Assembly: GCA_018664825.1 (NCBI GenBank)
Contig: JABJNO010000018.1
Coordinates: 22,722 to 86,721, forward strand
DNA from: Candidatus Parcubacteria bacterium
Lineage (GTDB): Bacteria; Patescibacteriota; Patescibacteriia; UBA1558; GWA2-36-10
Length of the DNA stretch: 64,000 nucleotides
Direction of reading: 5' to 3'
This document shows, in pieces, positions 1,528 to 55,513 of the stretch (position 1 is the stretch's first letter; each line of letters opens with the position of its first letter). Position numbers and translations under genes: made by a program. The notes beneath the pieces are model-generated. The model did not search any database. It was not told the origin of the DNA and worked only from the letters and a program-made list of their open reading frames with translations.

Positions 1528-4500
1528 TTAAATACCTGTGATTATATGGCGACAATATATAGTATTATTACCAAGACTACCTTCCCAAATAGGCATAGCT
1601 CCTGGCACCATGTGTCCCCAAGCTGGCGTACCATTTCCCCAGTAAGAATCTGTATCAGAATTCCACCAACCATCAGCCCAACCGAGTGTTATTGGAAGGT
1701 CCGGAGAATTCCAAGTAGGAGTATCGGCACCTGGATTATAAGTTACCTCACGCCAATCATTGGCAACGGTTTCTGATGGTGCGGTAGTTGTACAGTCCCA
1801 ATAAGGACTGCCTACATTTGTAGTAATACCATAGGACTCTGGTATGCATAAACTAGGCTTGTGCTCCCAATCATCCGTATCACCTTCATCAAAGGTTAAT
1901 TCAGTACTAGTATAATCTTTACACTCATCGTTATTCATACAGATATTCCCCTCACCATTACCCCCCGGATGAATACAATATCCTGGATCATGCGCCATAT
2001 CAACTGTACAATCCGGGACACTACTCGTACAAGTTTCTCCAGCATGTGAGCCCATATAACAAACACTTTGACAACGCATTGCCTGGCAAGAAAAACTCCC
2101 AACTATCCCAGCCGCACTACCGCCATCAGTAGCCTCAAAGGCAACTACGTTACCATTTGGATTATAATAGTTGAATACACCCGGAAAAGTAGTGTCATCA
2201 ATAAGAAACTCACAAGCTCCATCACCCGTTGCCTCAGCAAGTGGTTGTCCATAATCATCACATTGTTCCCAGTTGGTTCCTGTACCTACTGTTGTACCAT
2301 TTACATAAAGGGTAAAGCTATTATCAGCCATAAACTTGGCGTATAGTCTATTTTCTGTACAACAAGCGCCTTCGTACAAATCCTGACAATCATTGATACA
2401 AGTTACGGTACCAGCTACATATTGAGATGGATCATGCAAACGACAAGCTATTTCACCGTCACAAGCTTCTCCATGATAAGCTTGCACAATAGTATCACCG
2501 CAATATGGCCCTGAAGACTGACAGTCTATACCACAATAACCTGGGGAAGTAATACTATATACACCATTGTTAGATCCAGAATCACATATTTCACCATAAT
2601 CAGTAGTCCCGCCTGAACCATCCTGGGTAATACCATCACCACACCATCCTCCAAGGCCGGTACACATACTTCCTCCGCTATCATCACAATCATATTGATA
2701 TATTCTACCCAATTGCCAAAATACACCTGATTCATATGGAGTTGGAGAAAGGAAGTTGTGATAATCACATCCTTCATAATCTTCTTGGAATGTACCATCT
2801 CCACAATATCCTCCAGTAGTACCCGCACAATCATAACGACATTCGTATTGACTATCTATATCTGAGCTAGACACCGGAGTTATAGGGTAAAGAGGACTTG
2901 GCTCTAATGGTAATGGTAAGAAGAAGGAATCTCCTATATCACATATTTCACCATAATCAGTAGTCAAGCCTGAACCATCTTGGATAATACCATCACCACA
3001 CCAACCACCGTCGGTGGCTGTACAACGACCGTAGTCATTGCCAGTGGCAAAATCCTGATGTATACCTGACATACGACATTGATATTGTTCAAACTGACCT
3101 GTATATTCTCTTGGCGGTGTCACATAATCCGTGTCGCATAATTCATCAAAGGCATAATCAAATACTCCGTCACCACAATAATCATCTGTAAATTGACACT
3201 CAGTAGTACAACCATAAGTATTGGTAGGACCTGAAACATCTGGAGATGGCACGGTATATCCTACATAATCGCACTGCTCTCCTACTGGCTCTACTATACC
3301 ATTACCACAACTACCCAGATACGGCGTACCAGGTGAACAGACCACTGTACAACTACTTGTACAAACTACTTCTCCATGAGCAGGGGCATCTGCCGTACAA
3401 TCCCAGCCGCTTAATCCATCTGGGGAAGCTGATCCATCGCATTGTTCTATACCTTCTGTCCAAATATTATCACCACAAGCAGCGGCCGGAGTCATGTCAT
3501 TACAAACTGGTACACAAGAACGTCCTATTCCAGAATCACAGGTTGCAGTACCATTGCCTGCTGCACAAATATATTGAACACCCTCACATACTCCAGATGC
3601 ACTACAACTTTCACAAACTTCATCAAATGGCTGAACAAAGGTATCTCCGCAATATCCTCCACATTCGGCAGGAGTAAACGGTGGAGTTGGCTCTGTCCAT
3701 TGACACTCTACCAAAACTCCTCCCTCAATAGTTCCTGAAGGATTACAACCAATAGCTTGTTCATCCCACCAAGTAGCTCCAACTGGATTGACGGGTGACA
3801 TTGGGGCAGGAGGATTTGAACAACCCATTGTCCGGACATCTCTATCACAAGCTTCGCCAGGATCTATAATACCATTTCCACAATACGCACTTGTTGGAGT
3901 ACCCGGTGAATATGTTGAGAACCCGTCGCACTGTGGTAGTAGTCGAGCTATAATATTTTCAGTAGACTCACCAGCTCTATCCATGCCAGTAGGATTTGCT
4001 GGACCATTGTATAAAACAAGATCATAACGATATGGCACACCTCCTACAAACACAAAGGAGCCTGGTGTTTCTGTTTCAAAATTTGCACCTATTTCAAAGT
4101 CGATGCCTCCAACAGTATTTTCATATAAATATATTTGTGAATACTCTGTACAACCAAAAGTCAAAGTAGACTCATCCCAACATGTGTCTGGGTCAGCATC
4201 AGCACTCACACATCCATTAAATAAATTTACTGGATCAACTGGCAAAGAGGTTCCTAGATCTGAGCTAAGCTCCCCTTGCCAAGAAAGGGGCCATTTACTC
4301 GTTGACATACCATCAACAAAAGATCCGGAGGTAAGCAAAGGATAATAAGGAACACAACTTCCACCACCAGGACAAACGCCAGTCTCGGCACAATTATCAA
4401 TACTAGGATCATTGCTACAAGCCATATTATCTTCCCCATATTCTAAAATCTTTTCTTTTACACTCATCAATTCACCTAAACGCCTTGCATCACGCCTCAT

Positions 4501-7500
4501 CTTCTTTCCCAAAGATTCACAATAATCTCCTACATCTGGGCAATCAAAATCACTAGAACAAGCAGCGCCTGTACCGTTGCAGATATTAGTTCCTAGATCT
4601 AATCCTGAATTTTGATTAAATTCAAAATTTTCTAAAAGCTGATTGTATATCTCTTTAGTATCATCGCTAGCTCCCACATTGTGAGCTACCAAATAAATAT
4701 TTGTATAAATTGCTCCACCATTATAGTTTGTAGCAGCAACATAAGTAGTGGCTCCCACCTCTAGAGCTTCATAACCATCCACTTCTTTTAGAGTACCCTG
4801 ATCAGCTGGATAATCAAATTTTTTGTTATACCAATCTCTAATTGATGAATGTCCAAAGTTGCTCAACATCCTAACACTAATCAAATCAACTGTATCTGGA
4901 GGAGCTCCAGGTGTGACCGCAACGGGTCCAGCAAAACCAACATAGGCATAATTTGGCGGTCCTACGCAAGGAAAGATGCAATTTCTAGCTGCATAAACTT
5001 GATAATTATATGTTTGACCAGCTGTCACTCCAGTGTCTACCCACGTTTCTGTGTTGGCTGGTAAATTTGCTCTAAAACTATAACTTGGAGCCCCGTCTGG
5101 CCTCCTGTATACCCAAAAGGCTTCTTCTCTGGGACCTGAATCATTCCAATTCAATGTCACATCCACTTCAGAAGGGGTTGCTGTCAATCCCGTTGGCGGA
5201 AGAGGACTAAAGCCAGGCATTATAGCAGGCGGGAATGCTTCGGGCATTGAGCCTGGATAATTAGTTGTCTGGGCAAAAACAAAATTTGGTGTAAGCCAAC
5301 TAGCTATTTTATCTGTCAAAGATTTTGTGTTTGTTTGCGTATTATCTTCAAAAGCTAAGCTACCAAATCTATCAGCACCGCTGTCTGCATATACATTTAT
5401 CAAAAATAAATATTCTCCTAGATATTCTGGTGGATTAAAGTTTATCATTGTAGGTGGGTACGCCAAATAAGGCAAAGGAGTATCACCGTCTACACCAGTA
5501 TCATAACAATAATATGTTGAAAAATTATGCGCACCCTGAGTCCATGGATAACCAGCTAAACTTGGCCATGGATTTTCACACATAAACAACTCAATAATCG
5601 CAGAATCTGAACCAGAACCAGCATCAGTACTAGTAACATTTAAAGCTAAAACAAGATTTCCGTTGATAGGATTGGCCGTCAAATAAGTCTGTTGAGCGTC
5701 TGGTCCTATACCAACCAATGAACTACCCCCAATATCCCAATCAAATGTTAAAAATGTACCACTAAGCATATCGCCCCTAGCATCATAGACCAAGGCGTCA
5801 TATACATGCTGATTTCCAGCAACTCCGGTAAGCTCATCATCTATACAATCAGATCCACTGCAGTTGAACACATCAGATGGTGGGTCAATCTCCACAAAGC
5901 TGATCTGACAAATATGATCCCCGGTATCAAACATCCATCCATCTGCACCAAAGAGGTTGGGGAAAGTTATGGGACTAGCTGATAAATCCAAAGGCCTACC
6001 ATGTACGCTTAATATATTTGGAGCAACCATACTGACCGAGACCGTTTGATTGAAACCAAAATAATCACTTGGATTAAATATAGCCTCTGTTTCAAATACT
6101 CCATTGTTATCAGAATCTATTTTCCTAAGAACCCATGACCCTGGAACTTCGCACCAATACGAAGCTCCGTCAAAAAAACAACTTGTATCGGTTGATGGTC
6201 CTTCATATATTTTTATATTATTATTTATACTTTCACCATCCATTATCTCACTAAAGTGAATTGTGATGGCTGTATTTGGACATATATCCGTACCAAACAT
6301 CAGGGGCTCATAACTGATAATATAGGGATCAGTAAGACTTGAGGCTGACATATCAACATCAAAGATAGCTGTTTCAGCATGATTCACCGGTACTCCTGTA
6401 GTATTGTCAGTAATTGTTCCAACTATCGGAGCTAGACCAGTACCTGTTAGTAGTTGATTTCTAATATCAACACTCATTTGATCTGCGGGACCAAAAACAT
6501 CTGCAACCGGAACCTGCAAAGAAGTCCAATTATAGGTACACATACCAACTGGACATTGTACTGGTACAAGACCACAAGCACTATTGCTCATTGGCATTAT
6601 GTCATACTCCTCTACTTGACCAATGGTATCTGCAGTATGACTATCTGGGGTGACGTCTGCTCCGGTAATAGGACAATCTATATCACTAGTGCCAAATGTC
6701 CAACTATGTCCAGCAAAGGTATTTCCAAAATTATCCTCAAAACCAGCTGGTACAGTCACCGTGTAAGTCTCATTGACTAACAATGGAATATGATTGAGCA
6801 TAAGTCCAAATCCAGCAGCAATCCCTGTAAGAGGATTTCCTACATCTATATATTCAGTACCACTACTATCCTCAATACTAAATGACCCAATAACTGCAGC
6901 CAAAGTTGTGGCATTGGGTTGATTATTAAATGTAATAGTCACTGCCGAAGTCAGGCAAGCTGCACCACAGTTTGGAGTAAAGTCGGTAAAAGTAAAAATA
7001 TCTGAACTACCAATTATACTTACATCCAAAACTCCAGTATCCGCAAACACTTCTGGTGCCCCTCCGCTATTGTCTGTCAGTTGGAGTCCAATATTTGTAA
7101 AATCATCACCAACAATCAAAGTGGTAACAGCGTTGGTGGTTTGATTATTTATATTATTTATCAAAGCAACACTTGCATCACTTTCTGACCATGCATAATC
7201 ACAAGTACCGGCTGGGCAAGATACAGGGTACCAACCGCAACTACTATTATTGGCCATTGGCAAAGCACTGTATGGCACTATATCTCCAGGGGCAGTAGCA
7301 ACAATCGTCTCGTTGTCTGGATTGATAGATACATCTTCTATTGAGCACTCTTCTTCACCAGTTGTGAATACCCAGACAAAATCTGCACCCAGGGATTCAC
7401 TATAAATATTTTGTAAAGCGCCTGGTACTGTCACGGTATAAGTGTCATTAAAATTAAATGGAACAATACCATGTTCAATCTCTATGCTATTTGGACTCAA

Positions 7501-10500
7501 TTGAGTCACATTTGTTCTCCACTCTGTTCCTCCGCTGTCCCTAATATGAAAATCAGGTTCATTGGTAGTAATGCTAGCAAGTGGTATTGGAGAATTAAAT
7601 TCTACTACAACCATTGGATTACTACAGGCCCCATTACAATTTGGATCATAATCTATTATTTCCAAATCTACCGCATTGATGATTGGATTTGTAGCCCCGG
7701 TGTATGTCACAGTATCTATCATGGTACTAGCCTCCAAAGTCACATGATTGGGAGTTTCATTTTCTGTAGCATTGAGACCAGTCAAACCCGTAAGGCCTCT
7801 ACTGGTCATCAAGTTTGTAGTCGGACTAATAGAAGCATAAGGAGGGGCTGTGGCTGGCTCTGCTGTAATAGCCCAATCCCAATTATAATTTTCTCCACAC
7901 ATATTACAATTATCAGCTTGTGGGGAAGCATAAAATGATCTAGTTTGACCTATGTTTGTATCACCAGAGGGTGATTGTGGTGATATGGTCACTCCGCTCA
8001 CTGGACACATATCTGCCGTTGGCCTTGTTTTGAAATGCCAATCAGGAGCAGGATTAGCAACAGTAGGCCAAGTATCTCCACCTACTTCCGTGTTGAATCC
8101 AGGACCAGCCCCCATAACTATCCTATACCATGTATCTGGATTTAAATTAGCAGCAGTTGGATCAAATACTATACCTTCTCTATTGCTACCACTATTTATA
8201 ATACTCGAGGCACCTGGCACAGCTGTAGTGCAGGTAGCTGCTGAAAAAGCCCCGCCCACATTACACTCTGTAACCATGAAATTGGCAGGAATCAACAAAT
8301 CCGCATCTACGACATCCCTAGTAAATAAGGCTACTATATTTGTGCTCAAATATGCGTCTTCAGAATCATATCCATCCATATCATCTGGCCATGGAGATGG
8401 AGATTGCAAATTGTTACTACAATCATGTGAATAGGCAAGCCCAAAAGGATCTGCCTCGGTATTTAGTGTCCAAGTATAAGTACAAGTATTTAGACTTGAA
8501 CAGCCTCCAGCGGGAGCGCAGGTATTATCAGAACAGCACTCATCACCAAGTCCGTAGGCCTGGCAGTATGCATTGCTACCACCACAACTACCTACATTGA
8601 ACATCATAGAGTTTGAAGGCGTAGGTGAGGAATCATTTACCACCATCACTGATCCTGACTCAGCAAGACCAGGTACCGCCACTCCTTCTATATCATTATT
8701 GGCCCAAGAGCTTCCTGTGCCCCATGAATTTAAATTGAAATCAAAAACATCACTTGCTGCACCCAGAGTTCCAAAATTGTCACCAGCCAAATCTACCACT
8801 ACTCCACCGGCCGGTCCGTTGTCTGGGTGAAGATAACAAAGTCCTGGACCTGGTAGCCCAGCTGTTATATCAATCAAATAATCATTACTATCAATACCAT
8901 CGCTGGTAGTCACCCTAGCCACACGATCAATGCCAATACTAACTCCAGTAGGCACCTTTACTATAATCTGTGTATCCTGCCAAAAAGAGCTACTACATAT
9001 AGGAGGGAAAGTAAAATCCCCATTTATACCATCAAGTAACAATTGTCCTTGGGTATTTCCAAAGTTGACTCCACGGACAGTGAGGTATTGCCCTTCTGGA
9101 CCACCATCGGGAGTGATCTCTGTGATCCTAGGCAAACCGCTATCCACTGGTAAAGCAGAAAATGGAAAAGCATTACTAATATCTGTACCATTTTGCATAA
9201 CTACTCCTACCTCACCAATTACATTTGGTACATCTGGATTAGCCGTTGAATCATTTACTACATTTGTATTAGGACTAGTAAAGCCTCCGAAAATAGCCTC
9301 GCTACCAAGAAAACGTATACCGCGAACATTTACAGAGTCTTCATAAGATCCGGTTGGCGGAGTCAGTTGACAGATACCCGGTCTATTAAGAGAGTTGTCT
9401 GAATTGAATAAAACTGAATTACTACTAGCCACTCCATCTGACCTCTCTAAAGTCAGTTGCCCCGTGCCCGCTCCTACGGGTACAACTACTATCACAGCTG
9501 TGTCAGTCCAAAGATTACTACACAAACCACCAGTAAGGACACTTGGCCATTCATTTGGCACTACACCACCTGAACCATCGTCAAAATATACCTGTCCCTG
9601 AGCACAGCCTGTGTCTTCACAAAAATTACTACCATAGACGGTAACAAAATTACCCTCTTCACTGGTATCTGGAGAAATAGAAGAAATAAATGGATCTCCA
9701 CTAGCACCAGAACTGCCAGAAGAACACTCGGAATAAGCTGAGCAAGAATTACTATCACAACAACCAGAAAGGCATTCACCGTTGCCGCCACAAGTGACAT
9801 TGAACCAGGCTGGATTTGATGTGTCTACTCCGACTTGGACAGTGACGTCACTAGATAGTGCATCTGTAGGCACCGTCAGGGTGATCAAGTCATTTGCCCA
9901 AGAATGAGCAATATCTGCATTGTTATAAATATTTCGAACAAGCTCTGTACCAGACACAGGAGAAGTATTTATCAAAACCTGATCATCCGGCGGACCAAAG
10001 TTGTCACCTTCTATATCAAAAGAAAATGTACCAGGATCAGAAGGCCCTTGGCTTGGGTTGAGGCAAAATATACTAGGCTGAGGCCCTGAAGAATTTATAT
10101 TGAAGAAACTGCCAAAAGTATGGAAATCACCTGTCTGACTCGTGACGGTAACTGGATAGTTTCCTGGAGTGACATTTGGAACTATCACTACTGTCTTCCA
10201 ATATCCACTACCAACGCTGAGCTCATCCCACACTGGAGCTCCTCCACAAGTTGCTAGATCAGCTACATTACCAGAACCAAATTCTACCTGACTAGTACCT
10301 GCTACATAATTGTCAAAATGCCAACCACGGATAGTAACCGCTGAACCAACACCGTTTGTAAGTGGTGTTATTTCACAGATACGGACTTCATTTGGATTGG
10401 TCGGTCTTGCACAGGTGCCTCCTGTGGGTGGTAAAGTAACACTATTAGTATTACCACTATTACCTGCGCCTGTTTCATCGTATAAAGATTGTAAAATAAA

Positions 10501-10824
10501 TCTAGAAATAGCATAAGCAGACACTATGATCACCAAGCCTATGACCGCACTAACTATGATCATCTTGGCTCGCTGAATCTTGTCTGTATTGCCAGCTGAG
10601 GTCATCCAAATAAATCCACCATACAGTATCAAAACCACAGCTAGTATTCCTAGAAATCCTAGGAAGATATTTATTATTCCGGCAATCGTATCCTGCAACG
10701 ATCTAGTGCCTAGATTGACATCCGTCAAATCATTGACACCAAAGACATCTTGAGCAAAGACTTTTTGCACAGCCAAAAAGCCTAGGATGAAAGTTGCGGT
10801 GATTGTGGCCAAAAATTTCTTCAT
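1528..10824 (-). CDS. Giant (3098 aa) cysteine-rich surface protein with an N-terminal signal peptide plus double hydrophobic-helix module, IPT/TIG-like and Fn3 domains, and multiple myxo-type cysteine-rich repeats (CGDG/CGNG...E.CD)
   Basis: It is a single uninterrupted ORF. The signal peptide MKKFLATITATFILGFLAVQKVFA is followed by a TrbC/VirB2-like two-helix module. IPT-like segments include ITEITPDGGPEGQYLTVRGVNFG. An Fn3 segment reads LTATPSEVDVTLNWND...YNYQVYA. Repeats such as WCGDGIIQDGSGLTTDYGEICD and CGNGIVEPVGEQCD recur. Confidence 0.8.
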   Translation of the reverse strand: MKKFLATITATFILGFLAVQKVFAQDVFGVNDLTDVNLGTRSLQDTIAGIINIFLGFLGILAVVLILYGGFIWMTSAGNTDKIQRAKMIIVSAVIGLVIIVSAYAISRFILQSLYDETGAGNSGNTNSVTLPPTGGTCARPTNPNEVRICEITPLTNGVGSAVTIRGWHFDNYVAGTSQVEFGSGNVADLATCGGAPVWDELSVGSGYWKTVVIVPNVTPGNYPVTVTSQTGDFHTFGSFFNINSSGPQPSIFCLNPSQGPSDPGTFSFDIEGDNFGPPDDQVLINTSPVSGTELVRNIYNNADIAHSWANDLITLTVPTDALSSDVTVQVGVDTSNPAWFNVTCGGNGECLSGCCDSNSCSAYSECSSGSSGASGDPFISSISPDTSEEGNFVTVYGSNFCEDTGCAQGQVYFDDGSGGVVPNEWPSVLTGGLCSNLWTDTAVIVVVPVGAGTGQLTLERSDGVASSNSVLFNSDNSLNRPGICQLTPPTGSYEDSVNVRGIRFLGSEAIFGGFTSPNTNVVNDSTANPDVPNVIGEVGVVMQNGTDISNAFPFSALPVDSGLPRITEITPDGGPEGQYLTVRGVNFGNTQGQLLLDGINGDFTFPPICSSSFWQDTQIIVKVPTGVSIGIDRVARVTTSDGIDSNDYLIDITAGLPGPGLCYLHPDNGPAGGVVVDLAGDNFGTLGAASDVFDFNLNSWGTGSSWANNDIEGVAVPGLAESGSVMVVNDSSPTPSNSMMFNVGSCGGSNAYCQAYGLGDECCSDNTCAPAGGCSSLNTCTYTWTLNTEADPFGLAYSHDCSNNLQSPSPWPDDMDGYDSEDAYLSTNIVALFTRDVVDADLLIPANFMVTECNVGGAFSAATCTTAVPGASSIINSGSNREGIVFDPTAANLNPDTWYRIVMGAGPGFNTEVGGDTWPTVANPAPDWHFKTRPTADMCPVSGVTISPQSPSGDTNIGQTRSFYASPQADNCNMCGENYNWDWAITAEPATAPPYASISPTTNLMTSRGLTGLTGLNATENETPNHVTLEASTMIDTVTYTGATNPIINAVDLEIIDYDPNCNGACSNPMVVVEFNSPIPLASITTNEPDFHIRDSGGTEWRTNVTQLSPNSIEIEHGIVPFNFNDTYTVTVPGALQNIYSESLGADFVWVFTTGEEECSIEDVSINPDNETIVATAPGDIVPYSALPMANNSSCGWYPVSCPAGTCDYAWSESDASVALINNINNQTTNAVTTLIVGDDFTNIGLQLTDNSGGAPEVFADTGVLDVSIIGSSDIFTFTDFTPNCGAACLTSAVTITFNNQPNATTLAAVIGSFSIEDSSGTEYIDVGNPLTGIAAGFGLMLNHIPLLVNETYTVTVPAGFEDNFGNTFAGHSWTFGTSDIDCPITGADVTPDSHTADTIGQVEEYDIMPMSNSACGLVPVQCPVGMCTYNWTSLQVPVADVFGPADQMSVDIRNQLLTGTGLAPIVGTITDNTTGVPVNHAETAIFDVDMSASSLTDPYIISYEPLMFGTDICPNTAITIHFSEIMDGESINNNIKIYEGPSTDTSCFFDGASYWCEVPGSWVLRKIDSDNNGVFETEAIFNPSDYFGFNQTVSVSMVAPNILSVHGRPLDLSASPITFPNLFGADGWMFDTGDHICQISFVEIDPPSDVFNCSGSDCIDDELTGVAGNQHVYDALVYDARGDMLSGTFLTFDWDIGGSSLVGIGPDAQQTYLTANPINGNLVLALNVTSTDAGSGSDSAIIELFMCENPWPSLAGYPWTQGAHNFSTYYCYDTGVDGDTPLPYLAYPPTMINFNPPEYLGEYLFLINVYADSGADRFGSLAFEDNTQTNTKSLTDKIASWLTPNFVFAQTTNYPGSMPEAFPPAIMPGFSPLPPTGLTATPSEVDVTLNWNDSGPREEAFWVYRRPDGAPSYSFRANLPANTETWVDTGVTAGQTYNYQVYAARNCIFPCVGPPNYAYVGFAGPVAVTPGAPPDTVDLISVRMLSNFGHSSIRDWYNKKFDYPADQGTLKEVDGYEALEVGATTYVAATNYNGGAIYTNIYLVAHNVGASDDTKEIYNQLLENFEFNQNSGLDLGTNICNGTGAACSSDFDCPDVGDYCESLGKKMRRDARRLGELMSVKEKILEYGEDNMACSNDPSIDNCAETGVCPGGGSCVPYYPLLTSGSFVDGMSTSKWPLSWQGELSSDLGTSLPVDPVNLFNGCVSADADPDTCWDESTLTFGCTEYSQIYLYENTVGGIDFEIGANFETETPGSFVFVGGVPYRYDLVLYNGPANPTGMDRAGESTENIIARLLPQCDGFSTYSPGTPTSAYCGNGIIDPGEACDRDVRTMGCSNPPAPMSPVNPVGATWWDEQAIGCNPSGTIEGGVLVECQWTEPTPPFTPAECGGYCGDTFVQPFDEVCESCSASGVCEGVQYICAAGNGTATCDSGIGRSCVPVCNDMTPAAACGDNIWTEGIEQCDGSASPDGLSGWDCTADAPAHGEVVCTSSCTVVCSPGTPYLGSCGNGIVEPVGEQCDYVGYTVPSPDVSGPTNTYGCTTECQFTDDYCGDGVFDYAFDELCDTDYVTPPREYTGQFEQYQCRMSGIHQDFATGNDYGRCTATDGGWCGDGIIQDGSGLTTDYGEICDIGDSFFLPLPLEPSPLYPITPVSSSDIDSQYECRYDCAGTTGGYCGDGTFQEDYEGCDYHNFLSPTPYESGVFWQLGRIYQYDCDDSGGSMCTGLGGWCGDGITQDGSGGTTDYGEICDSGSNNGVYSITSPGYCGIDCQSSGPYCGDTIVQAYHGEACDGEIACRLHDPSQYVAGTVTCINDCQDLYEGACCTENRLYAKFMADNSFTLYVNGTTVGTGTNWEQCDDYGQPLAEATGDGACEFLIDDTTFPGVFNYYNPNGNVVAFEATDGGSAAGIVGSFSCQAMRCQSVCYMGSHAGETCTSSVPDCTVDMAHDPGYCIHPGGNGEGNICMNNDECKDYTSTELTFDEGDTDDWEHKPSLCIPESYGITTNVGSPYWDCTTTAPSETVANDWREVTYNPGADTPTWNSPDLPITLGWADGWWNSDTDSYWGNGTPAWGHMVPGAMPIWEGSLGNNTIYCRHIITGI
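2581..2660. repeat. Intragenic direct repeat copy A (about 75-80 nt) that encodes one of the duplicated Cys-rich WCGDGI.QDGSG.TTDYGEICD units
   Basis: It is near-identical by eye to 2938..3010 (atcacatatttcaccataatcagtagtc...accatcaccacacca). Confidence 0.4.
2938..3010. repeat. Intragenic direct repeat copy B
   Basis: It is near-identical to 2581..2660. Confidence 0.4.
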
Positions 10825-10848: not shown

Positions 10849-12471
10849 CTAATTACTTGTGCCGCAATTTGTACCAGAATTAGGCCAAGGACAGTCGGTA
10901 CCAACTGCTGCATTATTATTATCACAAAGACACGTGCCTGTAGGATCTGTACATTCACAGAAATACCAACAGTTTTGTCTCAAATCACTGATTCCAGAAG
11001 TAAGAGTCGGGGTATAGTCTGTAGATGGATCCAGTATATCGTGCCTTATCTCGACAATATGACTACTATTGAGTCCCAACCAAAAATTGACATCTCCAAG
11101 CGTGCTCTGATGAAATTGGATGTTTGTACTATTGATTGAGCTAGACAATAAATTTTCATCAAAAGTAACTCTGATTGGCTCAGATACAGAAGCATCGTCG
11201 TTGTCTTCCATATTGTTTATTTCTGGTGGATCAAGATCGATTGTATTATTGGTGCTAAATGTCCAGGTAAAATCTCCTCCTGCACCACCATCGCCATCAC
11301 CATCCAAAATATTTCCAGCCATGTCTGTAATCACATTTGGAAAAGCCCCGGTACCACTGACCGTGGATAGCATGGTAGCGCTAGCAGGCAAACAATATAC
11401 ATCTCCTCCACAAGAGTTTGAACCACACCAAACATCAGTAATAAATTCAACAGTTTGATATTGATTTGATATCCAATATTGTCCATCCAGAGTAACCCCA
11501 CCCTCGTCTACTGTAATATTTGTAAAAGGAGGATGTACACCAGCTGAAACTATAGGATTGACGGGTTCAGTAAAGTTTATTTGAACTACGCTATTTCGAG
11601 GATTATCAAGACCAACTGGCAAAACAGTATCTACTCTAGGTGGTGTGATATCTACTTCATTGTTTACTGTAAAGTCCCAGTCATAGTATCCGGTAAATGG
11701 GAAAGCAGTCGCCCCTGCTACAGTAGCCAGATCATCCAGGGTCATTTTGTAGGGAACGTCACCAACGTCATCACCCAAAAGAGGTGCTGGATCAAACTGG
11801 AAATTCAGCAACTCGGCTGTATCATAAGTGACTATCAGTTCTGAATTGATCAAACTAACACCGTCGTGAGGAGCCAAAATAATATGGCTTGTATCAGCCT
11901 GACACTCTACCAATGTACCAACTATAGTAGTACAGGTAGTCCCAACCACTATATCCGTAGCATCAATTGGTTCTTTGAAAGTTACAAAAATATTGGTATT
12001 TCTAGGAATCTCACGTGCATTACGAGAAGGATAATGACTTTCTATAACTCCACCTCCCAAACCAAGTCCTCCGGTATATCCGCCACCAGATCCACCACTA
12101 CCCCCTACCGTTCCGTCGTATCCTTCTTGAAGTAAGAAGCGGGCAATAGCATAAGAAGATAATATTATAGCTAGTCCAATAACACCGTTGATAATAATCT
12201 TTTTAGCACGATCAATTTTATCTGCATTGCCACCGGAAGTCATCCAAATATAACCACCATACAAAATAATAACGGTGGCTAAAATACCTAGGAAACCTAG
12301 GAATATATTAATAATACCAGCAACCATATCTCTAAGGTCTCTAGTACCCAAATTTGTATTGGACAAATCATTTACTCCATATACATCTTGAGCGCTGGCT
12401 ACTTCTGGCAACAAAAAAATAACTGCAAAAAAGAGAAATAATAATACAGTTATTTTTTTATTAGTTAGCAT
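10849..12471 (-). CDS. 540-aa secreted/anchored protein that shares the N-terminal signal plus double-helix module with the giant protein; its passenger region is different, Gly-rich and Cys-rich
   Basis: Its N-terminus reads AQDVYGVNDLSNTNLGTRDLRDMVAGIINIFLGFLGILATVIILYGGYIWMTSGGNADKIDRAKKII. The corresponding region of the 3098-aa protein reads AQDVFGVNDLTDVNLGTRSLQDTIAGIINIFLGFLGILAVVLILYGGFIWMTSAGNTDKIQRAKMII. Only 24 nt separate the two genes. Confidence 0.7.
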   Translation of the reverse strand: MLTNKKITVLLFLFFAVIFLLPEVASAQDVYGVNDLSNTNLGTRDLRDMVAGIINIFLGFLGILATVIILYGGYIWMTSGGNADKIDRAKKIIINGVIGLAIILSSYAIARFLLQEGYDGTVGGSGGSGGGYTGGLGLGGGVIESHYPSRNAREIPRNTNIFVTFKEPIDATDIVVGTTCTTIVGTLVECQADTSHIILAPHDGVSLINSELIVTYDTAELLNFQFDPAPLLGDDVGDVPYKMTLDDLATVAGATAFPFTGYYDWDFTVNNEVDITPPRVDTVLPVGLDNPRNSVVQINFTEPVNPIVSAGVHPPFTNITVDEGGVTLDGQYWISNQYQTVEFITDVWCGSNSCGGDVYCLPASATMLSTVSGTGAFPNVITDMAGNILDGDGDGGAGGDFTWTFSTNNTIDLDPPEINNMEDNDDASVSEPIRVTFDENLLSSSINSTNIQFHQSTLGDVNFWLGLNSSHIVEIRHDILDPSTDYTPTLTSGISDLRQNCWYFCECTDPTGTCLCDNNNAAVGTDCPWPNSGTNCGTSN

Positions 12472-20575: not shown

Positions 20576-20675
20576 ATGTTTTCTTTTTAATTATTAAGCT
20601 TAATTTAACATAGCTCAAAATATATATCAATGTCTTATTTTAATTGGTGTGGGTGACATAAATGCCACCCACAAG

Positions 20676-20870
20676 CTATCCATCGAACCAGGGACTACTG
20701 TTAGATTCATTTCCTGTCCAGGAAACTTCCGAATCCTCATAGTCATCTTGGCTATAAATAGCCTTTTGGTTACCTGATTTTGATTGACCGGTGACAGAAT
20801 CCACATCCACACCGTCAACCAAATCTTCTCGCTCTAGCTTGGTATCCTGTTCAGGAGTTTTTTGCGACAT
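20676..20870 (-). CDS. Small acidic low-complexity protein (64 aa) downstream of the G+C-rich ORF
   Basis: It is an ORF 12 nt downstream of 20883..21200. The product is D/E/S-rich, so coding status is uncertain. Confidence 0.3.
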   Translation of the reverse strand: MSQKTPEQDTKLEREDLVDGVDVDSVTGQSKSGNQKAIYSQDDYEDSEVSWTGNESNSSPWFDG

Positions 20871-20882
20871 AAGATCGACTCC

Positions 20883-21200
20883 TTAAACATTACGAACAAT
20901 GCAATCTGCATTCCACTTTATGCGAGCCAGCAACAACTTTGTTGCTTTGCCGCGCCACTCAGGTACCTTTTCTACGATCAAGCGCAGATGTGCATCCGAG
21001 GGATCCCGACTCAACAACTCTACTGTTACCTTGTCCCGCCAAAGCGACCCCTTGGATACTACCTCTGCCAACTGCTCGTTGCTGGGGTTGGTATCCAAAA
21101 AATCTTGGCAGGCTCGCTGTACCTGGGCGACTTCTGGTCCCCAGATTTTGTGACGATCTCTGTACATGGTATTACCTCCGGTTAAATGAAAGATGGTCAC
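20883..21200 (-). CDS. Hypothetical 105-aa protein encoded in a G+C-enriched segment; likely foreign
   Basis: It is a clean ORF whose codon composition is visibly G+C-rich against the AT-rich background. I recognise no family for it. Confidence 0.4.
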   Translation of the reverse strand: MTIFHLTGGNTMYRDRHKIWGPEVAQVQRACQDFLDTNPSNEQLAEVVSKGSLWRDKVTVELLSRDPSDAHLRLIVEKVPEWRGKATKLLLARIKWNADCIVRNV

Positions 21201-21516: not shown

Positions 21517-21705
21517 ATGTTGAAAAATTTTCTCTGCACCGAGTGCAAAAAGTCCTTTGAAATTGATGGTTTTGGTCAAGAAGTAGAAATGACAAGCAAC
21601 GCCAAAAACACTGGTCATCATGGACTATGCGAGGCTTGCCAAAAGGCTACTGGAAAATACCCTGACCTATTGACAATAGGAGCACCGAAAGGAATGAAAA
21701 CATGA
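21517..21705 (+). CDS. Small zinc-ribbon protein (CxxC...CxxC)
   Basis: It reads LCTECKK...CEACQK and is preceded by the strongest SD in the window (aaaggagtgaaaacATG). Confidence 0.5.
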   Translation: MLKNFLCTECKKSFEIDGFGQEVEMTSNAKNTGHHGLCEACQKATGKYPDLLTIGAPKGMKT

Positions 21706-21896
21706 CACAAAAAGTAGAAATACTAAGTGGATTTTTCACTTGCTGTGAATGTCGAGAACTTTTTTATCGACAACCCAATGCCCAAGGTGGGCACGATGAA
21801 CGTAAGGTCAAAGAAGAAGAATGTGGAGGCAGTGATTGTCCAATGAATATTTGTAGCCCTTGTTACAAAAAAGTAACTAAAAAACCCTCGAAGTAA
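21702..21896 (+). CDS. Small Cys-rich zinc-ribbon protein, ATGA-coupled to the previous one
   Basis: It reads FFTCCECREL...CGGSDCPMNICSPCYKK and overlaps the upstream gene by ATGA. Confidence 0.5.
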   Translation: MTQKVEILSGFFTCCECRELFYRQPNAQGGHDERKVKEEECGGSDCPMNICSPCYKKVTKKPSK

Positions 21897-22696: not shown

Positions 22697-23122
22697 TTAT
22701 TCTTTAATTCTAACTCCCATTTGACGAGCAGTACCAGCTATAATCTTTTTGGCTGCATCAATGTCATTTGCATTTAAGTCTGGCATTTTTGCTTCTGCGA
22801 TCTCAGTCAATTGAGCATCAGTCAAACTACCAACTTTTTGTTGCAAAGGATTGCCTGAACCTTTTTTAAGGTTTGCCTTTTTCTTGATCATATCAGAAGC
22901 AGGAGCAGTCTTCAAAACTAGACTAAAACTTCTATCTTCATAAATAGTCAAATCCACTGGTACAACTTCTCCCATTCTATCTTTGGAAGCCTCGTTGAAC
23001 TGTACACAAAAAGCTTGGATATCCAAACCGTGCGGTCCTAGAGCTGTACCTACTGGAGGCGCTGGAGTAGCTTTACCAGCTTGAATTTGTAATTTTACAA
23101 CTTGCTTTACTTGTTTTGCCAT
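22697..23122 (-). CDS. rplK: 50S ribosomal protein L11
   Basis: It reads [31 protein letters not shown] placed the start at the internal Met. Confidence 0.85.
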
Positions 23123-23185
23123 ATAATTGTTGTTGTGAGGTAATAACACTCAAGTGACTACCCTCGAGCTCCCTCTGTTATAAAT

Positions 23186-25274: not shown

Positions 25275-27338
<2,064 letters not shown>

Positions 27339-27515
27339 TTATAGTATTTTTTAATTTAAATATACCTTTATTTTAGCATAAAATAGTCAAAAAAACAACC
27401 AAAATTGGCCGTTTTTTACTATGATTATTATGGCTAATATTAGACAAAAAGTATCGATTTTTACTTTCTCAAAATTGAACCAAATTTTTTGCCCAAAATA
27501 CCCTAAATTTTATCC

Positions 27516-27556
27516 AAAAAAAATAGCCCTGTTTCAATCAAATGACTGAAACAGAG
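27516..27556 (-). terminator. Rho-independent terminator downstream of the HPt gene
   Basis: The stem ctgtttca...tgaaacag (8 bp perfect) is followed on the minus strand by an 8-nt T-run. Confidence 0.55.
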
Positions 27557-27572
27557 CTGAGTGGATGTTGTA

Positions 27573-28079
27573 TTAAGAAGCGCTTATGTTATTAATTGCC
27601 TCTAATGCTTTTTTATATTCCAATGCAAAATTATCCTTGGCTGCATTGATATCATTCTGGTCACCATTTTTGGCGGCCGACTCAAGTGCCTTGCACGCAA
27701 TAGCTAAGCGCGGTGCACCATAAGTCAGGCAAGCTCCTCTGAGGGCGTGACTATCACGGACAATAATGGCGGTGTTCCGAGCAACAATCGCTTGAGCAAT
27801 AGAATCGAACAACAGCGGTGCGTGGTCTAAAAAAAGATCACGTAGTTCGGCCAGGATTTCCTGATCATCACCGAATTCGGCTATCAGACGAGATTCGTCA
27901 ATGACAGGTGTATCTCCGAGGTTCATATCCTCAAGCACTTTGACCAGGGTCCATTTTCCTGAATTTACCAATCTGACTGCCTCGCCTGGATCACTTTCTC
28001 CTGTCTGACTCATAATGTTCTTAACGAGAGCATTGAGCCTTCCGGGCAAGATGTTACGAATTGCAAATTGATCGTTCAT
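27573..28079 (-). CDS. Stand-alone histidine phosphotransfer (HPt) domain protein, encoded in a G+C-enriched segment
   Basis: The C-terminal half reads SHALRGACLTYGAPRLAIACKALE, the canonical HPt H-x-L-K/R-G-x-x-x-x-x-G-A motif. I placed the start at MNDQ (cat at 28077-28079), which sits behind AGGAGAAG with a 5-nt gap. The longer track ORF to 28223 is probably an over-extension. Confidence 0.6.
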   Translation of the reverse strand: MNDQFAIRNILPGRLNALVKNIMSQTGESDPGEAVRLVNSGKWTLVKVLEDMNLGDTPVIDESRLIAEFGDDQEILAELRDLFLDHAPLLFDSIAQAIVARNTAIIVRDSHALRGACLTYGAPRLAIACKALESAAKNGDQNDINAAKDNFALEYKKALEAINNISAS

Positions 28080-28273
28080 GATACTTCTCCTAATGCTTGT
28101 TTGCACTTTTTCATTTTCCTCTAATCCGAGGAAGGAGCTACAACAGTTGTAGTCATAGCCAGAAAATACCATCTTCAGATAGTAACTTTTGGCTATGCCT
28201 ACATATTTTAAAGAACATAGCATATTAATCTATAATATAAATTATGTCAAATTCCTCGTACCTAACAAATAAT

Positions 28274-28309
28274 ACAAAAATCCCCATTGCCTACAAAAAC
28301 AACGGGGAT
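28274..28309 (-). terminator. Rho-independent terminator downstream of pheST
   Basis: The hairpin tccccattg...caacgggga has one mismatch and is followed by a minus-strand T-run. Confidence 0.45.
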
Positions 28310-28334
28310 AAAATTTAAGTTTATATTATGCTTA

Positions 28335-30761
28335 CTAGCGTAAAACTGCCTTAAATTTTTTGCTCAAAATATCCTCTATCTTGCCCATCAATTTATCAAT
28401 ATCTTCGGCTAGCAAAGTCCTTTCGTCACTACGAAACTCTATGTGAAAGGCAATGGACTTTTGACCCTTATCTACATTTTTACCTGTATAGATATCAAAC
28501 AGCTCTACAAGTTTTATCAAAGAAGATGCTTTGTAGACTTCATTTTCAATATCTTGCCATTTGATAGACTGATCGACCACTAAGGCCATATCTCTTTCAA
28601 TGCTAGGAAATTTTGCTAAAGCCTGAAACTTTCTGGCTCTATTTATGTATTTGGTAGTAGCAGTAAAATCTAATTGCCAAAAACCTACGTTGACCTTGGT
28701 ATCTCCACTATCAAATAAATCTGAATTTAATATTCCAAAATTACCCAAGATGATTTGTTGCTGTTTGACTTGAAAGGCCAATTCGGCAAAAGGTAATTCT
28801 ACTTCTTCTATTTCCCAATCAATATTCCAATAATCTTTCATTGTTTCCAATAGTCCTTTGACTGACAAAAATGTATCTTGAGCGCTTTGTTTACTCACTT
28901 CTACGCCAACTAGGTATTTGTCTTGCTTTGGTAAAAACTTTTTCTTGGACGGATCAGTATGATAGGAGCCTTTGGAATTTTTATCAAAAGTCCTTTCCAG
29001 TTCAAAAATATTAAACTCTTCATACCAACGCAAATTCTCTTCTGCTTTTTTGAGTAAGTTTGGTAAAAGTGAAATATTTAAGTAAGCTTGCTCAGGACTA
29101 AATGGATTGGCTACCTTGATATGCTTGCCCAAATCAAATCCCAATCGCTTGGCCCAAATCTGATCTGTAAAAGGGTAAGTATATATCTCATGATAATTTT
29201 GAGAACAAGCCAAGAATTTTTTAATCTCTTTACTTTCTTGAAGTCTTATATCTATTTCTGGTTTTTTCAAAGATACTATTGGCAACTTTGATTCTAGATT
29301 GTCATAACGATAAATCCTAGCTACCTCCTCCACTATATCCTCTGGTATAGAAATATCTTTGGTTGCCCGGAAGCTTGGTACATTGATATCAAATGTTTTG
29401 GCTTTGTATTTTATATCAAATTGTAAACGTTTCAAAATATCTTTGATTTCGGCTGTTGGGATAATTTGTCCAAAACGCTCATTGATCAAAGCTTCTGGTA
29501 CTTTTATATTTATTTCTTTAAAAGGATTGTTATCTACATCCACCAACTCACTAGCTACATAGGCTTCTTTATTTAAAGCCAAGATCATCTCAGTAGCCTT
29601 TTTGATGGCCATCTCTGCTAATACTGGATCAAGAGATTTTTCAAAACGAGTAGAACTTTCGGATCGCAATCCCAAGGCTACAGATGTACGTCTGACACTA
29701 GCTGCTTTAAAATTAGCAGATTCCAAAATAATATTAGTAGTATCATTGCTAATTTCACTATTTTGTCCTCCCATAATACCAGCCAAGGCCACATTGCGCT
29801 GACTATCTGCAATCATCAAAGCTCCTTCTGGTAATTTTCTTTTTTCACCATCCAGAGTAACAAATTTATCTCCCTTTATGGCTTGTTTGACTACAATATG
29901 ATTATCCGCAATTTGTTTTGCATCAAAAGCATGCATTGGCTGACCCAATTCATACATTATATAATTTGTGACATCGACAATGTTGTTGATTGGACGGATG
30001 TCTACTGATTCCAACAAAACTTTGAGCCACCATGGAGATTCTTCTACTTTGACACCATGTATAGCTAGCCCCAAGTAGCGATAACAATTTTCCTTGTCTT
30101 CTACGTCTACCCTGAGCTTTATTTCTTTTTTAGATTCCAACTCAGCTACCTTGTATTCTTTTAGCTTGGTCTTGTAGATAGCTGCCAACTCTCTGGCCAT
30201 GCCATATTGGCCCCATAGATCAGGCCTATGGTTTATAGATTTATTATCAATATCAATGACTATATCATTTAGTTTCAGGGCTTCTGCCAAAGGCTGACCA
30301 ACTTTTGGACGCATACTAGATAAGTCCAGTATTTCATTTTCTGATTCAGCTGGAAATAAATTGCCCAAACCAATTTCTGAAGAAGCTGCAATCATACCAT
30401 TTGATTCTACTCCTCTGATTTTGGTCTTTTCCAAGGTCACCAATTCACCTTGACCATGCCATTTGACTTTGGAGCCTACTTTGGCCAGAGCCACTGTCAT
30501 ACCTTTTTTCAAATTGTTACCACCACAGACAATTTGTTCTTCTTTTTCTCCAATATCAACCTGACAAACATACAGACGGTCTGCATTTGGATGTTTGGTA
30601 AGTTCAGTAATTTTACCAGCTACGATATCTTTGAGGGATTCAGATTGATCCATTACTCCTTCAACCTCAACAGTAGACATAGTCAAATCAAGAGCCAATT
30701 GCTTGGCATCTATGTTTGGAAGTTTCAAATGTTTTTTTACCCAATTGAGTGATAGATACAT
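28335..30761 (-). CDS. pheT: Phenylalanyl-tRNA synthetase beta subunit
   Basis: It is 808 aa and sits immediately downstream of pheS, with a tRNA-binding N-terminus and B3/4-B5-like core. Confidence 0.8.
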   Translation of the reverse strand: MYLSLNWVKKHLKLPNIDAKQLALDLTMSTVEVEGVMDQSESLKDIVAGKITELTKHPNADRLYVCQVDIGEKEEQIVCGGNNLKKGMTVALAKVGSKVKWHGQGELVTLEKTKIRGVESNGMIAASSEIGLGNLFPAESENEILDLSSMRPKVGQPLAEALKLNDIVIDIDNKSINHRPDLWGQYGMARELAAIYKTKLKEYKVAELESKKEIKLRVDVEDKENCYRYLGLAIHGVKVEESPWWLKVLLESVDIRPINNIVDVTNYIMYELGQPMHAFDAKQIADNHIVVKQAIKGDKFVTLDGEKRKLPEGALMIADSQRNVALAGIMGGQNSEISNDTTNIILESANFKAASVRRTSVALGLRSESSTRFEKSLDPVLAEMAIKKATEMILALNKEAYVASELVDVDNNPFKEINIKVPEALINERFGQIIPTAEIKDILKRLQFDIKYKAKTFDINVPSFRATKDISIPEDIVEEVARIYRYDNLESKLPIVSLKKPEIDIRLQESKEIKKFLACSQNYHEIYTYPFTDQIWAKRLGFDLGKHIKVANPFSPEQAYLNISLLPNLLKKAEENLRWYEEFNIFELERTFDKNSKGSYHTDPSKKKFLPKQDKYLVGVEVSKQSAQDTFLSVKGLLETMKDYWNIDWEIEEVELPFAELAFQVKQQQIILGNFGILNSDLFDSGDTKVNVGFWQLDFTATTKYINRARKFQALAKFPSIERDMALVVDQSIKWQDIENEVYKASSLIKLVELFDIYTGKNVDKGQKSIAFHIEFRSDERTLLAEDIDKLMGKIEDILSKKFKAVLR

Positions 30762-31774: not shown

Positions 31775-32212
31775 TTATGTATCTAATTTATTTTCACTAC
31801 TTTGGCGAAAAACCAAAACTACGAATTCCACTACTGTGGCCAGTACAACCAAAAGTAGTATATTCCACCAAGTCAGCACTTGTGCGGCTTGTAGCCACAA
31901 AGCAATCATCAAGGCACCTGAAAAAATAATCCCCTGACGAAAAGATTCGGTGACCATCAGTCTAGGAATACCTCGTTTGCGATTCCAAGCTACGCGAAGT
32001 CCAAATCCCACTAAAGACAAAGTACCCAATGTACTAAGGAACAATACTGAGTAAAACATTATAAAAATTATCAAATTGGCCTGAAAAGGGTCAAAATTGT
32101 TGATAATTATAAAAAAACCCAGCCACGCAATAATTGTGGCCACTAGCATGCTTATATTGTAACTCTTGATATTCATCAGTATAAATATACTAAAAATAAG
32201 GCGAAAAATCAA
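31775..32212 (-). CDS. Hypothetical polytopic membrane protein
   Basis: It has four hydrophobic segments and lies 4 nt downstream of pheS. Confidence 0.45.
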   Translation of the reverse strand: MIFRLIFSIFILMNIKSYNISMLVATIIAWLGFFIIINNFDPFQANLIIFIMFYSVLFLSTLGTLSLVGFGLRVAWNRKRGIPRLMVTESFRQGIIFSGALMIALWLQAAQVLTWWNILLLVVLATVVEFVVLVFRQSSENKLDT

Positions 32213-55484: not shown

Positions 55485-55513
55485 TAATCAAGTAAACTAA
55501 TTTTTTATACTAT

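Follow-up and report, generated by a model that had tools for sequence, protein, structure and literature searches.

A fusion of an N-terminal module of CPR bacteria with an HPt domain, inserted between pheT and gyrB in a Candidatus Parcubacteria genome

How does a gene for an HPt phosphotransfer protein, G+C-rich and without an evident signalling partner, come to lie between two housekeeping genes of a Candidatus Parcubacteria bacterium? The window, by which we mean the whole 64,000-nucleotide (64-kb) stretch of DNA analysed here, has the look of a CPR genome: it contains 37% G+C, nearly all of its genes lie on one strand and their content is housekeeping. A preliminary description, made from the letters alone, had pointed to an open reading frame with an HPt motif. 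This frame is flanked by a PheT-like gene (28335-30761) and a GyrB-like gene (25275-27335). The frame and its motif are borne out, as the product matches Pfam PF01627 with 38.0 bits (cut-off 24.6; E = 2e-9) over residues 78-162 and profile positions 1-81 of 84, and the 168-aa product is identical to the NCBI record MBT4850020.1, 'Hpt domain-containing protein [Candidatus Parcubacteria bacterium]'. Neither a histidine kinase nor a receiver was found in six frames of the 64-kb window (seven seed proteins, all E > 0.04), nor were kinase or receiver domains found in the 28 window ORFs scanned with Pfam, in agreement with what had been stated from inspection; tRNA genes and Rfam families were likewise not found in the window. 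We argue below that the gene is a chimera of two parents, carried on a short insert. Of this origin and anatomy we are highly confident; that the chimera has a genuine role in a phosphorelay is possible, with a chance slightly short of even; and the overall account, which takes in origin, anatomy and phosphorelay role, is somewhat probable.

The composition of the gene sets it apart from its surroundings. Counted from the Met at 28079, the CDS has 45.6% G+C against a mean of 36.0% across the 57 other ORFs (z = 3.0), a GC3 of 0.417 against a mean of 0.298 for the other window ORFs (z = 2.4), and the most atypical synonymous codon usage of the 54 ORFs long enough for scoring (z = -3.4); no other window ORF equals it in G+C, GC3 or codon deviation. 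In the comparison of G+C and codon usage that the preliminary description had proposed, here run within the window, the gene thus falls outside the window distribution. The region belongs to the top 1.4% of 509-nt windows for G+C (z = 2.25), and the G+C content peaks at 50% in the 200-nt window 27700-27899 and drops to 25% in the spacers on either flank. The earlier estimate by eye, about one-half against one-third G+C, was hence right in direction, and the difference is statistically real, but its size was overstated (46% versus 36-37%). Horizontal acquisition, which had been proposed from composition, is upheld here as well, but a synonymous donor signal explains the excess only partly. The bulk of the excess sits in codon positions 1 and 2, which indicates an amino-acid composition inherited from a G+C-rich lineage, much of it kept by selection; only part of the excess is a residual donor signature at synonymous sites. 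Codon atypicality is equal in both halves of the gene (-1.24 and -1.23).

Among 5.8 billion proteins searched, the relatives of the product fall into two non-overlapping sets. The first comprises about 88 Pfam Hpt proteins, nearly all of 123 aa, that match only residues ~56-168 at 46-67% identity; the second consists of five proteins of 209-227 aa without a Pfam domain, one of them named as from a Wolfebacteria genome, that match only residues 1-~50 at 56-69% identity. Homology of this N-terminal segment, hereafter the N-module, stops at residue 45 (SGKWTL), and DNA homology to the gene of the HPt relative P0002 (locus L049) begins exactly at the GTG start of that gene, which corresponds to codon 48 of the chimera. 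From this point the chimera reads GTG CTT GAG GAT ATG AAC CTC GGA GAT ACA CCT GTC ATT GAC GAA, and the P0002 gene starts GTG ATT ACG GAT ATC GCC CTT CCC GGG CCC GAC ACC CCT GTT ATC GAC GAA. Since the DNA homology runs from P0002's own GTG, codon 48 is the former HPt start, and codons 48-168 equal HPt residues 1-123 less two codons (CCC and CCC of P0002). In a model of the chimera, linker residues 47-53 have pLDDT values below 50, and the N-module, a part predicted without alignment depth at pLDDT 65-74, forms two helices (residues 12-26 and 31-40).

To judge by these alignments, the product is an in-frame fusion of a 45-aa N-module from a CPR family with a complete 123-aa HPt ORF. The gene is accordingly not the HPt-only protein for which it had been taken, as residues 1-45 are a module of a separate family fused in frame. 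The combination of N-module and HPt occurs in one of 132 scanned family members, which is the chimera itself, and in none of ~89 HPt relatives. Fusion via microhomology was considered because both parents begin MSTEF..LPG; the junction lies at codons 46-48 and not there, so that the N-terminal likeness of the parent families is probably due to chance. Three HPt loci (L021, L024 and L042), which match from residue 13-20 and had been considered as HPt genes with N-module-like extensions, proved to be ordinary 123-aa HPt genes whose upstream frames are merely open, in DNA of 61-69% G+C. The fusion either formed at the pheT-gyrB site or came preassembled.

The translation start and the sequence upstream of it bear on which parent supplied the expression signals. 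Starting from their Met-1, about 200 family members can be aligned with the N-terminus of the chimera without any offset, residue by residue, which supports the start at 28079 already favoured in the preliminary description. The Shine-Dalgarno (SD) element AGGAG (28091-28087) stands 7 nt before this ATG, or 4 nt if counted from AGGAGAAG, which corrects the 5-nt spacer given earlier. Its predicted pairing with the anti-SD amounts to -7.3 kcal/mol, compared with a window mean of -1.5, and pairing as strong or stronger is seen at 2 of 57 other ORF starts; nearly all other window ORFs have A/T-rich leaders and no SD, so that an SD of this quality is indeed rare in the window, as had been claimed.

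The 144 nt upstream of the start (28080-28223) are non-coding and appear to form a conserved leader RNA, with DNA-level conservation between the 5' leader of the chimera and the leaders of five other family genes. Within it, the P1 hairpin (CAUAGCCA...UGGCUAUG) is present in three of six family leaders (the chimera, L013 and L052), the shared P2 hairpin CCUC-GGAUUA-GAGG looks invariant, and the P3 stem covaries (GUGC/GCAU, GGGC/GCCC, GCCC/GGGC, CCGC/GCGG, CGC/GCG). The leader of the chimera folds with -44.8 kcal/mol (z = -4.25 versus shuffles), and in the minimum-energy structure a CUCCU element pairs with the SD. In the model-fitted alignment of the six sequences used for training, pairing covers 86.5% of cells, and the covariation is 0.289 versus 0.148 for shuffled alignments (4/500); both values exceed all slid controls. 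A covariance model, with the leader of the chimera among its six training sequences, matches at 28077-28136 (ATG included) with 65.4 bits and, in 268 kb, finds matches only upstream of family genes. As the six distinct sequences are all training data, the evidence for a conserved structured leader of the N-module family is suggestive rather than proof. There is no Rfam family for the leader; the weak hits of a permissive Rfam search, such as RT-14 with 17.8 bits (gathering cut-off 48.1; E = 3.3), were discarded, being at chance level. Because leader and SD are conserved upstream of N-module family genes, both belong to the N-module parent, that is, to the CPR side, and not to the HPt donor.

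This N-module parent is a CPR-wide, unannotated family of ~215-aa proteins with a C-type-lectin-fold C-terminus. Searched against 1.84 billion representatives, a profile of the first 49 residues recovered 213 representative clusters, whose proteins nearly all measure 200-235 aa and have the module from residue 1 onwards. The chimera, which scores 105.6 bits (E = 6.7e-26) against the N-module profile in a library search, likewise has the conserved FAIAxVxPGKLNALVKNIMxQTGxxDPNEAVRLVNSGEW at residue 1 and is 63-67% identical to the family proteins P0091-P0095 across the module. It holds the sole copy of the module in the window (E = 2e-32), and the family HMM matches only its N-terminal part. Pfam found no match in 129 of 132 N-module members, two weak and probably spurious matches, and Hpt only in the chimera; searches with the N-module in Pfam, NCBIfam, PHROGs, PADLOC and PDB sequences gave no significant match. 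The family is absent from viral contigs, and there is thus no evidence for phage carriage.

A link to DGRs emerged from one member of this family. CPR DGR targets (clade 2) have been described as 'without recognizable domain' (Roux et al. 2021, PMC8144416), and DGR targets have been suggested to be modular and to recombine intragenically (PMC8144416). In a Wolfebacteria genome (locus L015), bAvd and a reverse transcriptase (RT) follow ~1 kb downstream of the P0091 gene; the last 134 nt of this gene recur beside bAvd, and wherever the two repeat copies differ (10 of 10 differences), the RT-proximal copy has an adenine, as is characteristic of DGRs. Both published statements agree with what is seen in this family. 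P0091 is hence a verified DGR target and the sole family member so verified; near the other inspected N-module members no RT was found within 2.5-8 kb. Six frames of the window contain no RT or Avd homologue (best E = 0.23), and no part of the chimeric CDS occurs a second time in the window. With no RT, Avd or template repeat there, the chimera is no DGR target in its own right.

The HPt parent leads to a different phylum. With one genome per species, 28 HPt-family loci were found, 14 of them from Krumholzibacteriota/-ia, three from 'Fibrobacteraceae' MAGs, one from Gemmatimonadales and ten without taxon name; none is from CPR (the representatives do not include the chimera's own genome). The loci that were read have 55-72% G+C, the HPt genes of the relatives 52-73%, and the loci share a gene order in which a divergent MipA-like gene lies upstream of HPt and a convergent SpoU-type methylase downstream. 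No kinase or regulator is adjacent to HPt in the Krumholzibacteriota relatives, and a CheA gene 8 kb away, considered as a partner, was set aside, being confined to one lineage and not conserved. HPt is thus an orphan gene in these relatives too, and its neighbourhood gives no clue to partners. A protein search for the donor lineage, another step that the preliminary description had proposed, led to this Krumholzibacteriota family, whose closest members are ~60% identical to the HPt part of the chimera; on sequence evidence, the nearest relatives of the HPt parent form a conserved orphan family in G+C-rich Krumholzibacteriota genomes. By neighbour-joining, the chimera nests with P0002, P0003 and P0019 in the closest subgroup (122 of 200 bootstraps) on a long branch, with ~59% identity to the subgroup, members of which share ~76% among themselves. 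Identity to P0002 is 0.74, 0.75 and 0.41 at the three codon positions, and GC3 is 0.66 in P0002, 0.39 in the HPt part of the chimera and 0.30 in the host average; these values imply that the transfer is old or the true donor unsampled. With synonymous sites near saturation, GC3 mostly ameliorated and a pheT duplicate 29% diverged, the event is old. A literature search on two-component systems of Krumholzibacteria or on HPt transfer into CPR found nothing relevant.

The flanks of the gene preserve traces of its arrival (Table 1). Two metagenomic relatives, L046 and L047 (PheT identity 60% and 53%), have the empty site, in which gyrB directly follows pheT across spacers of 105 and 115 nt; the corresponding gap in the window is 999 nt long. 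Its 125 nt nearest to gyrB can be aligned with the entire spacer of the relatives, including the old terminator hairpin and a TGnTAAAAT promoter region. Next to them lies a relic of a pheT 3' end (R2), which translates as DKI*GILGKKFGSILRK* and forms with the functional pheT end (R1) a 56-nt direct repeat, 71% identical (40/56) at a spacing of 871 nt. No other non-self match in the window equals this pair (next best 33/56; z = 7.3). Given that relic and ancestral spacer lie downstream of the gene, the insert comprises a replacement pheT end, a hairpin, a promoter-like site, the leader, the CDS and a terminator; the chimeric gene is thus the single gene of an 871-bp insert that separates pheT from gyrB. 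Among the 28 window ORFs scanned with Pfam, neither an integrase nor a transposase was seen in or near the insert, and none of four other N-module family loci bears a flanking-repeat scar. Ten contigs from independent assemblies (JGI, ENA and Logan) are 100% identical across the pheT, insert and gyrB junctions; their sole difference is one synonymous SNP, and the population is clonal. Identity across both junctions in ten contigs rules out misassembly and shows that the insert is fixed in the population.

Table 1. Features of the chimeric gene and its flanks (window coordinates).
Feature	Position	Strand	Remark
R1, functional pheT 3' end (last 17 codons + stop)	28332..28387	-	left repeat copy
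Terminator-like hairpin after pheT, inside insert	28280..28309	-	13-bp stem, then T run
Promoter-like TTGACA-17-TAATAT for chimeric gene	28222..28250	-	10/12 consensus matches only
Chimeric HPt ORF	27573-28223	-	216 aa as open frame
Predicted leader hairpin P1	28148..28203	-	27-nt arms; inverted repeat, 81% complementary
Putative conserved leader core	28080..28136	-	aligned in six N-module family loci
Predicted leader P2, UUCCUC/GAGGAA	28133-28128 / 28121-28116	-	
Predicted leader P3, GUGC/GCAU	28106-28103 / 28096-28093	-	
N-module, codons 1-45	27945..28079	-	homology to CPR ~215-aa protein family
Fusion junction, codons 46-47 (GTC AAA)	27939..27944	-	between the two homology ends
HPt ORF, codons 48-168 + stop	27573..27938	-	DNA match to P0002 gene from GTG
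Predicted phospho-His111 codon, CAC	27749-27747	-	
Intrinsic-terminator-like hairpin of chimeric gene	27525..27558	-	15-bp stem, then T8
R2, decayed relic of ancestral pheT 3' end	27461..27516	-	right repeat copy; collinear with L046 and L047 pheT ends
Ancestral pheT-gyrB spacer, now downstream of insert	27336..27460	-	aligns with L046/L047 spacers
Old pheT terminator hairpin	27390-27417	-	within ancestral spacer

Does the captured domain still look fit for phosphotransfer? The AlphaFold2 model of the chimera places HPt helices at residues 73-100, 103-120, 123-138 and 141-167 (pLDDT >= 90) in a four-helix-bundle fold, and each of the 27 best Foldseek matches to this model in the PDB is an HPt protein or domain. 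In alignments with the HPt structures of BarA, HptB and Shewanella, His111 of SHALRGA falls on their phospho-accepting His, so the motif His singled out in the preliminary description holds up against bona fide HPt domains; His111 and Gly115 are invariant across 82 aligned sequences. The chimera keeps 26 of 26 invariant columns of the HPt family and 44 of 48 positions conserved at >=90%, compared with 29 of 65 variable positions (Fisher p = 1e-7); the same 44/48 describes its share of the family-specific positions (PVIDESRL..EILAELRDLF..HSLKGACATYGAPRL). Substitutions on its branch thus spare the conserved HPt columns. Retention of these positions and of the phospho-His argues for a retained HPt function, but the long branch may in part predate the transfer, if the donor is unsampled, and the conservation test is no proof of selection after transfer. 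Three of the four changes at family-conserved positions flank His111 (S112A, K114R and A118L), Lys114 being invariant in 81 of 81 HPt relatives and Arg in the chimera. These three changes fit a retuning toward a new partner and could equally reflect relaxed constraint on phosphotransfer.

We propose that the HPt four-helix bundle would remain a phosphotransfer module and that the chimera would relay a phosphoryl group from one receiver domain to another, the receivers being encoded in other parts of the genome. The flexibly linked two-helix N-module would supply partner binding, as it may do for the lectin-fold proteins, and translation would be set by the inherited leader, with its CUCCU element pairing either a decoy GAGGA or the SD.

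A protein outside any phosphorelay, in which the HPt bundle acts as a helical binding or scaffold domain, or one drifting to loss or already functionless, is on balance unlikely. Such a reading draws on the lack of a kinase or receiver in the 64-kb window, on the replacement of the invariant Lys114 together with two more conserved residues changed beside His111, on an architecture confined to one of 132 family members and none of ~89 HPt relatives, and on the sighting of the chimera in one clonal population. Against it, the His, the Gly and 44 of 48 conserved positions are kept, and the exchange of Lys for Arg is conservative. The ORF stayed intact while the adjoining 17-codon pheT relic gained an in-frame stop, and promoter-like site, leader, SD and terminator are intact as well. 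As an example of a scaffold role, the chimera might compete with lectin-fold family members for the partner of the N-module.

Three further readings concern the origin of the gene and each is much less probable than that. A plain stand-alone HPt, transferred with its own SD and carrying a divergent extension of 55 N-terminal residues, would account for the HPt domain, the atypical composition and the SD, all of which are real; it is very improbable and, in our view, refuted by the separate N-module family, its leader and the GTG junction, because residues 1-45 match that family at 63-67% identity and 105.6 bits, SD and leader are conserved upstream of N-module family genes, and the HPt relatives are 123-aa proteins that start at codon 48 of the chimera. 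Equally slim are the prospects of a vertically inherited CPR gene whose G+C richness is merely amino-acid composition: most of the excess does sit in codon positions 1 and 2, but no other window ORF is as extreme in GC3 or in synonymous codon use, two relatives pass directly from pheT to gyrB, the chimeric gene is followed by a relic pheT end and the ancestral spacer, and no CPR genome is among the 28 HPt-family loci. Finally, a phylum-crossing affinity of the HPt part could betray an assembly chimera or bin contamination, with Krumholzibacteriota DNA mis-joined into a CPR contig, and two other database entries, P0088 and P0090, do look like HPt mis-joins on short contigs. Here the ten identical contigs and the decayed duplication scar refute misassembly for practical purposes, and its probability is negligible: the HPt part is just ~60% identical to any relative, its G+C content is 46% compared with 52-73% in the relatives' genes, and the ORF is fused in frame.

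We therefore return to the chimeric insert. What is new about it is the union of N-module and HPt, the interphylum origin and the insertion scar; the HPt domain was known and the protein already annotated as such. The case is an unusually clean capture of a gene across phyla by an ultra-small CPR genome, in which the empty site, the insertion scar, a junction at the HPt start codon and the state of amelioration are visible together. The donor lineage could hint at the organism with which the symbiont lives. The HPt gene alone is a one-off in a single clonal population and of moderate immediate significance. The parent family reaches further, as a large CPR family that includes DGR targets has a strongly conserved 45-aa module and a candidate structured leader, both new and neither of them in Pfam, NCBIfam, PHROGs, PADLOC or Rfam, and the chimera illustrates that N-module and leader can serve again in front of another C-terminal domain, which supports the idea of modular DGR-target genes (PMC8144416). 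A much bolder reading, which we regard as a long shot, would make the N-module the conserved output or adaptor end of CPR-wide, DGR-diversified lectin-fold receptors, the chimera a natural domain swap into a His-Asp phosphorelay captured from a Krumholzibacteriota-like bacterium, possibly the host of this episymbiont, and the leader a new class of cis-regulatory RNA in control of these receptors. If true, the chimera would help to find the signalling targets of CPR DGR proteins, an open question (PMC8144416).

Comparison with known systems places the chimera between several of them. Closest is the Krumholzibacteriota 123-aa HPt family (P0002-P0089; for example, at loci L018, L019 and L025), to which the chimera is 51-63% identical over HPt-family columns, or 42-63% across all sampled members, and with which it shares the 26 invariant and 44 of 48 conserved positions and DNA homology from the GTG. 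Unlike this family, the chimera resides in a CPR genome at 46% rather than 52-73% G+C; is a 168-aa protein with its HPt part behind a foreign N-module instead of a single-domain protein of 123 aa; lies between pheT and gyrB without the synteny of MipA-like gene, HPt and SpoU; and is two codons shorter near the N-terminus of the HPt part, on a long branch and with S112, K114 and A118 changed. To the stand-alone HPts (PF01627; P. aeruginosa HptB, 7c1i; LuxU, 1y6d; Ypd1; plant AHPs) it compares through a like helical bundle and through the lack of a kinase or receiver on the same polypeptide, and to the HPt domains of hybrid kinases (BarA, 3iqt; Shewanella, 3myf; ArcB, 2a0b) through a like fold; TM-scores of the chimera model, normalised to the target, are 0.76 for HptB and 0.81 for 3myf. 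HPt proteins and the chimera both have a solvent-exposed His within the motif H-x-x-(K/R)-G; the chimera differs from known HPts by an extra 45-aa N-module of separate origin with a flexible linker and by Arg in place of the usual Lys at His+3.

The insert as such resembles integrative islets at gene 3' ends, in that it is atypical in composition, is bounded by a repeat of the target 3' end and has an incoming copy that completes the target gene. It departs from them in measuring just 871 bp, with one cargo gene and no integrase or transposase found, in a repeat of 56 nt that is 29% diverged, and in a target, pheT, that is protein-coding and not a tRNA gene. With the family of CPR DGR variable proteins, of which TvpA (2y3c) and Mtd (1yu0) are structural relatives, the chimera has in common the 45-aa module at its N-terminus together with the 5' leader RNA and SD; in the chimera, HPt replaces the whole lectin-fold, VR-bearing C-terminal 165 residues.

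A structured 5' leader is conserved ahead of genes of the CPR N-module/lectin-fold family, both upstream of the chimeric N-module-HPt gene of the window and at five other loci that carry family members (L013, L015, L050, L052 and L053; see table). In it a CCUC/GAGG hairpin precedes a covarying 4-bp hairpin and then a Shine-Dalgarno (SD) motif, and Rfam holds no entry for it. Within the leader, CUCCU can pair alternatively with a GAGGA decoy or with the SD, an arrangement that suggests translational control of these genes. Judged on all ORF starts of the window, SD motifs are almost wholly absent from the genome; what precedes the starts is A/T-rich sequence, for example AAATAT or ATAAT. A few ORFs apparently bear an SD (22697-23149, 31775-32212), but their starts may be wrongly placed.

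Two further representatives of the N-module family, P0096 (203 aa) and P0098 (270 aa), each match the 49-position module profile over two separate stretches, which suggests tandem duplication of the module. The Wolfebacteria locus of family member P0091 (L015) carries a complete DGR cassette. Between the variable region, at the 3' end of the P0091 gene, and the RT-proximal template there are 10 mismatches, every one of them at an adenine of the template. A second downstream repeat copy, within a 71-aa ORF, matches the template at 100% across the repeat; this copy could be either a second target that is not diversified or a duplicated template.

Krumholzibacteriota conserve the gene for the 123-aa HPt as an orphan in a fixed setting (loci L011 and L018-L045): the upstream neighbour is a divergent MipA-like outer-membrane gene at 19 loci, and the downstream one is a convergent SpoU-type methylase at 18. 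No kinase or regulator adjoins it across these loci. Two proteins from short contigs, P0088 (148 aa) and P0090 (212 aa), are of the same HPt type over their first ~58-85 residues, after which the sequence is that of the C-terminus of DNA polymerase A or of a 4-alpha-glucanotransferase; they are probably assembly mis-joins.

A second G+C-rich patch of the window, at 20600-21200, reaches up to 54% in 100-nt windows. The M17 aminopeptidase gene and the gene for ribosomal protein L1 are separated by 1.4 kb, and the patch lies between them. It contains no long ORF; a 105-aa ORF there matches no Pfam family, and neither a tRNA nor an Rfam match was found in the patch. Two small Cys-rich ORFs follow. 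The patch could represent a further acquired islet or an unknown RNA.

Elsewhere in the window, five paralogous small genes of 95-116 aa (N-terminus MTK.EVCEKLR...) overlap or abut in tandem and are followed by a 182-aa relative; similar genes lie 6 kb away. Two array members searched against Pfam matched no family. A 3098-aa and a 540-aa protein have similar signal-peptide-like N-termini (…AQDV[FY]GVNDL…), and the latter contains T4SS-pilin/TrbC and Big_5 domains. Both are probably cell-surface or pilus-associated proteins of the sort typical of CPR bacteria.

Coordinates of leader copies, DGR components and other features
Feature	Location	Strand
Leader, 5' of chimeric gene	window 28080-28205	-
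Leader	L013 ~7890-8000	
Leader	L015 7944-8000	
Leader	L050 2442-2500	
Leader	L052 274-329	
Leader	L053 638-691	
DGR repeat copies	L015 8493-8626, 8974-9107, 9455-9588	
bAvd	L015 9595-10005	-
RT	L015 10006-10980	
105-aa ORF	window 20883-21200	-
Two adjacent Cys-rich ORFs	window 21517-21896	+
Small-gene array and 182-aa relative	window 61205-63389	-
Two array-like small genes	window 55227-55729	-
3098-aa protein gene	window 1528-10824	-
540-aa protein gene	window 10849-12471	-
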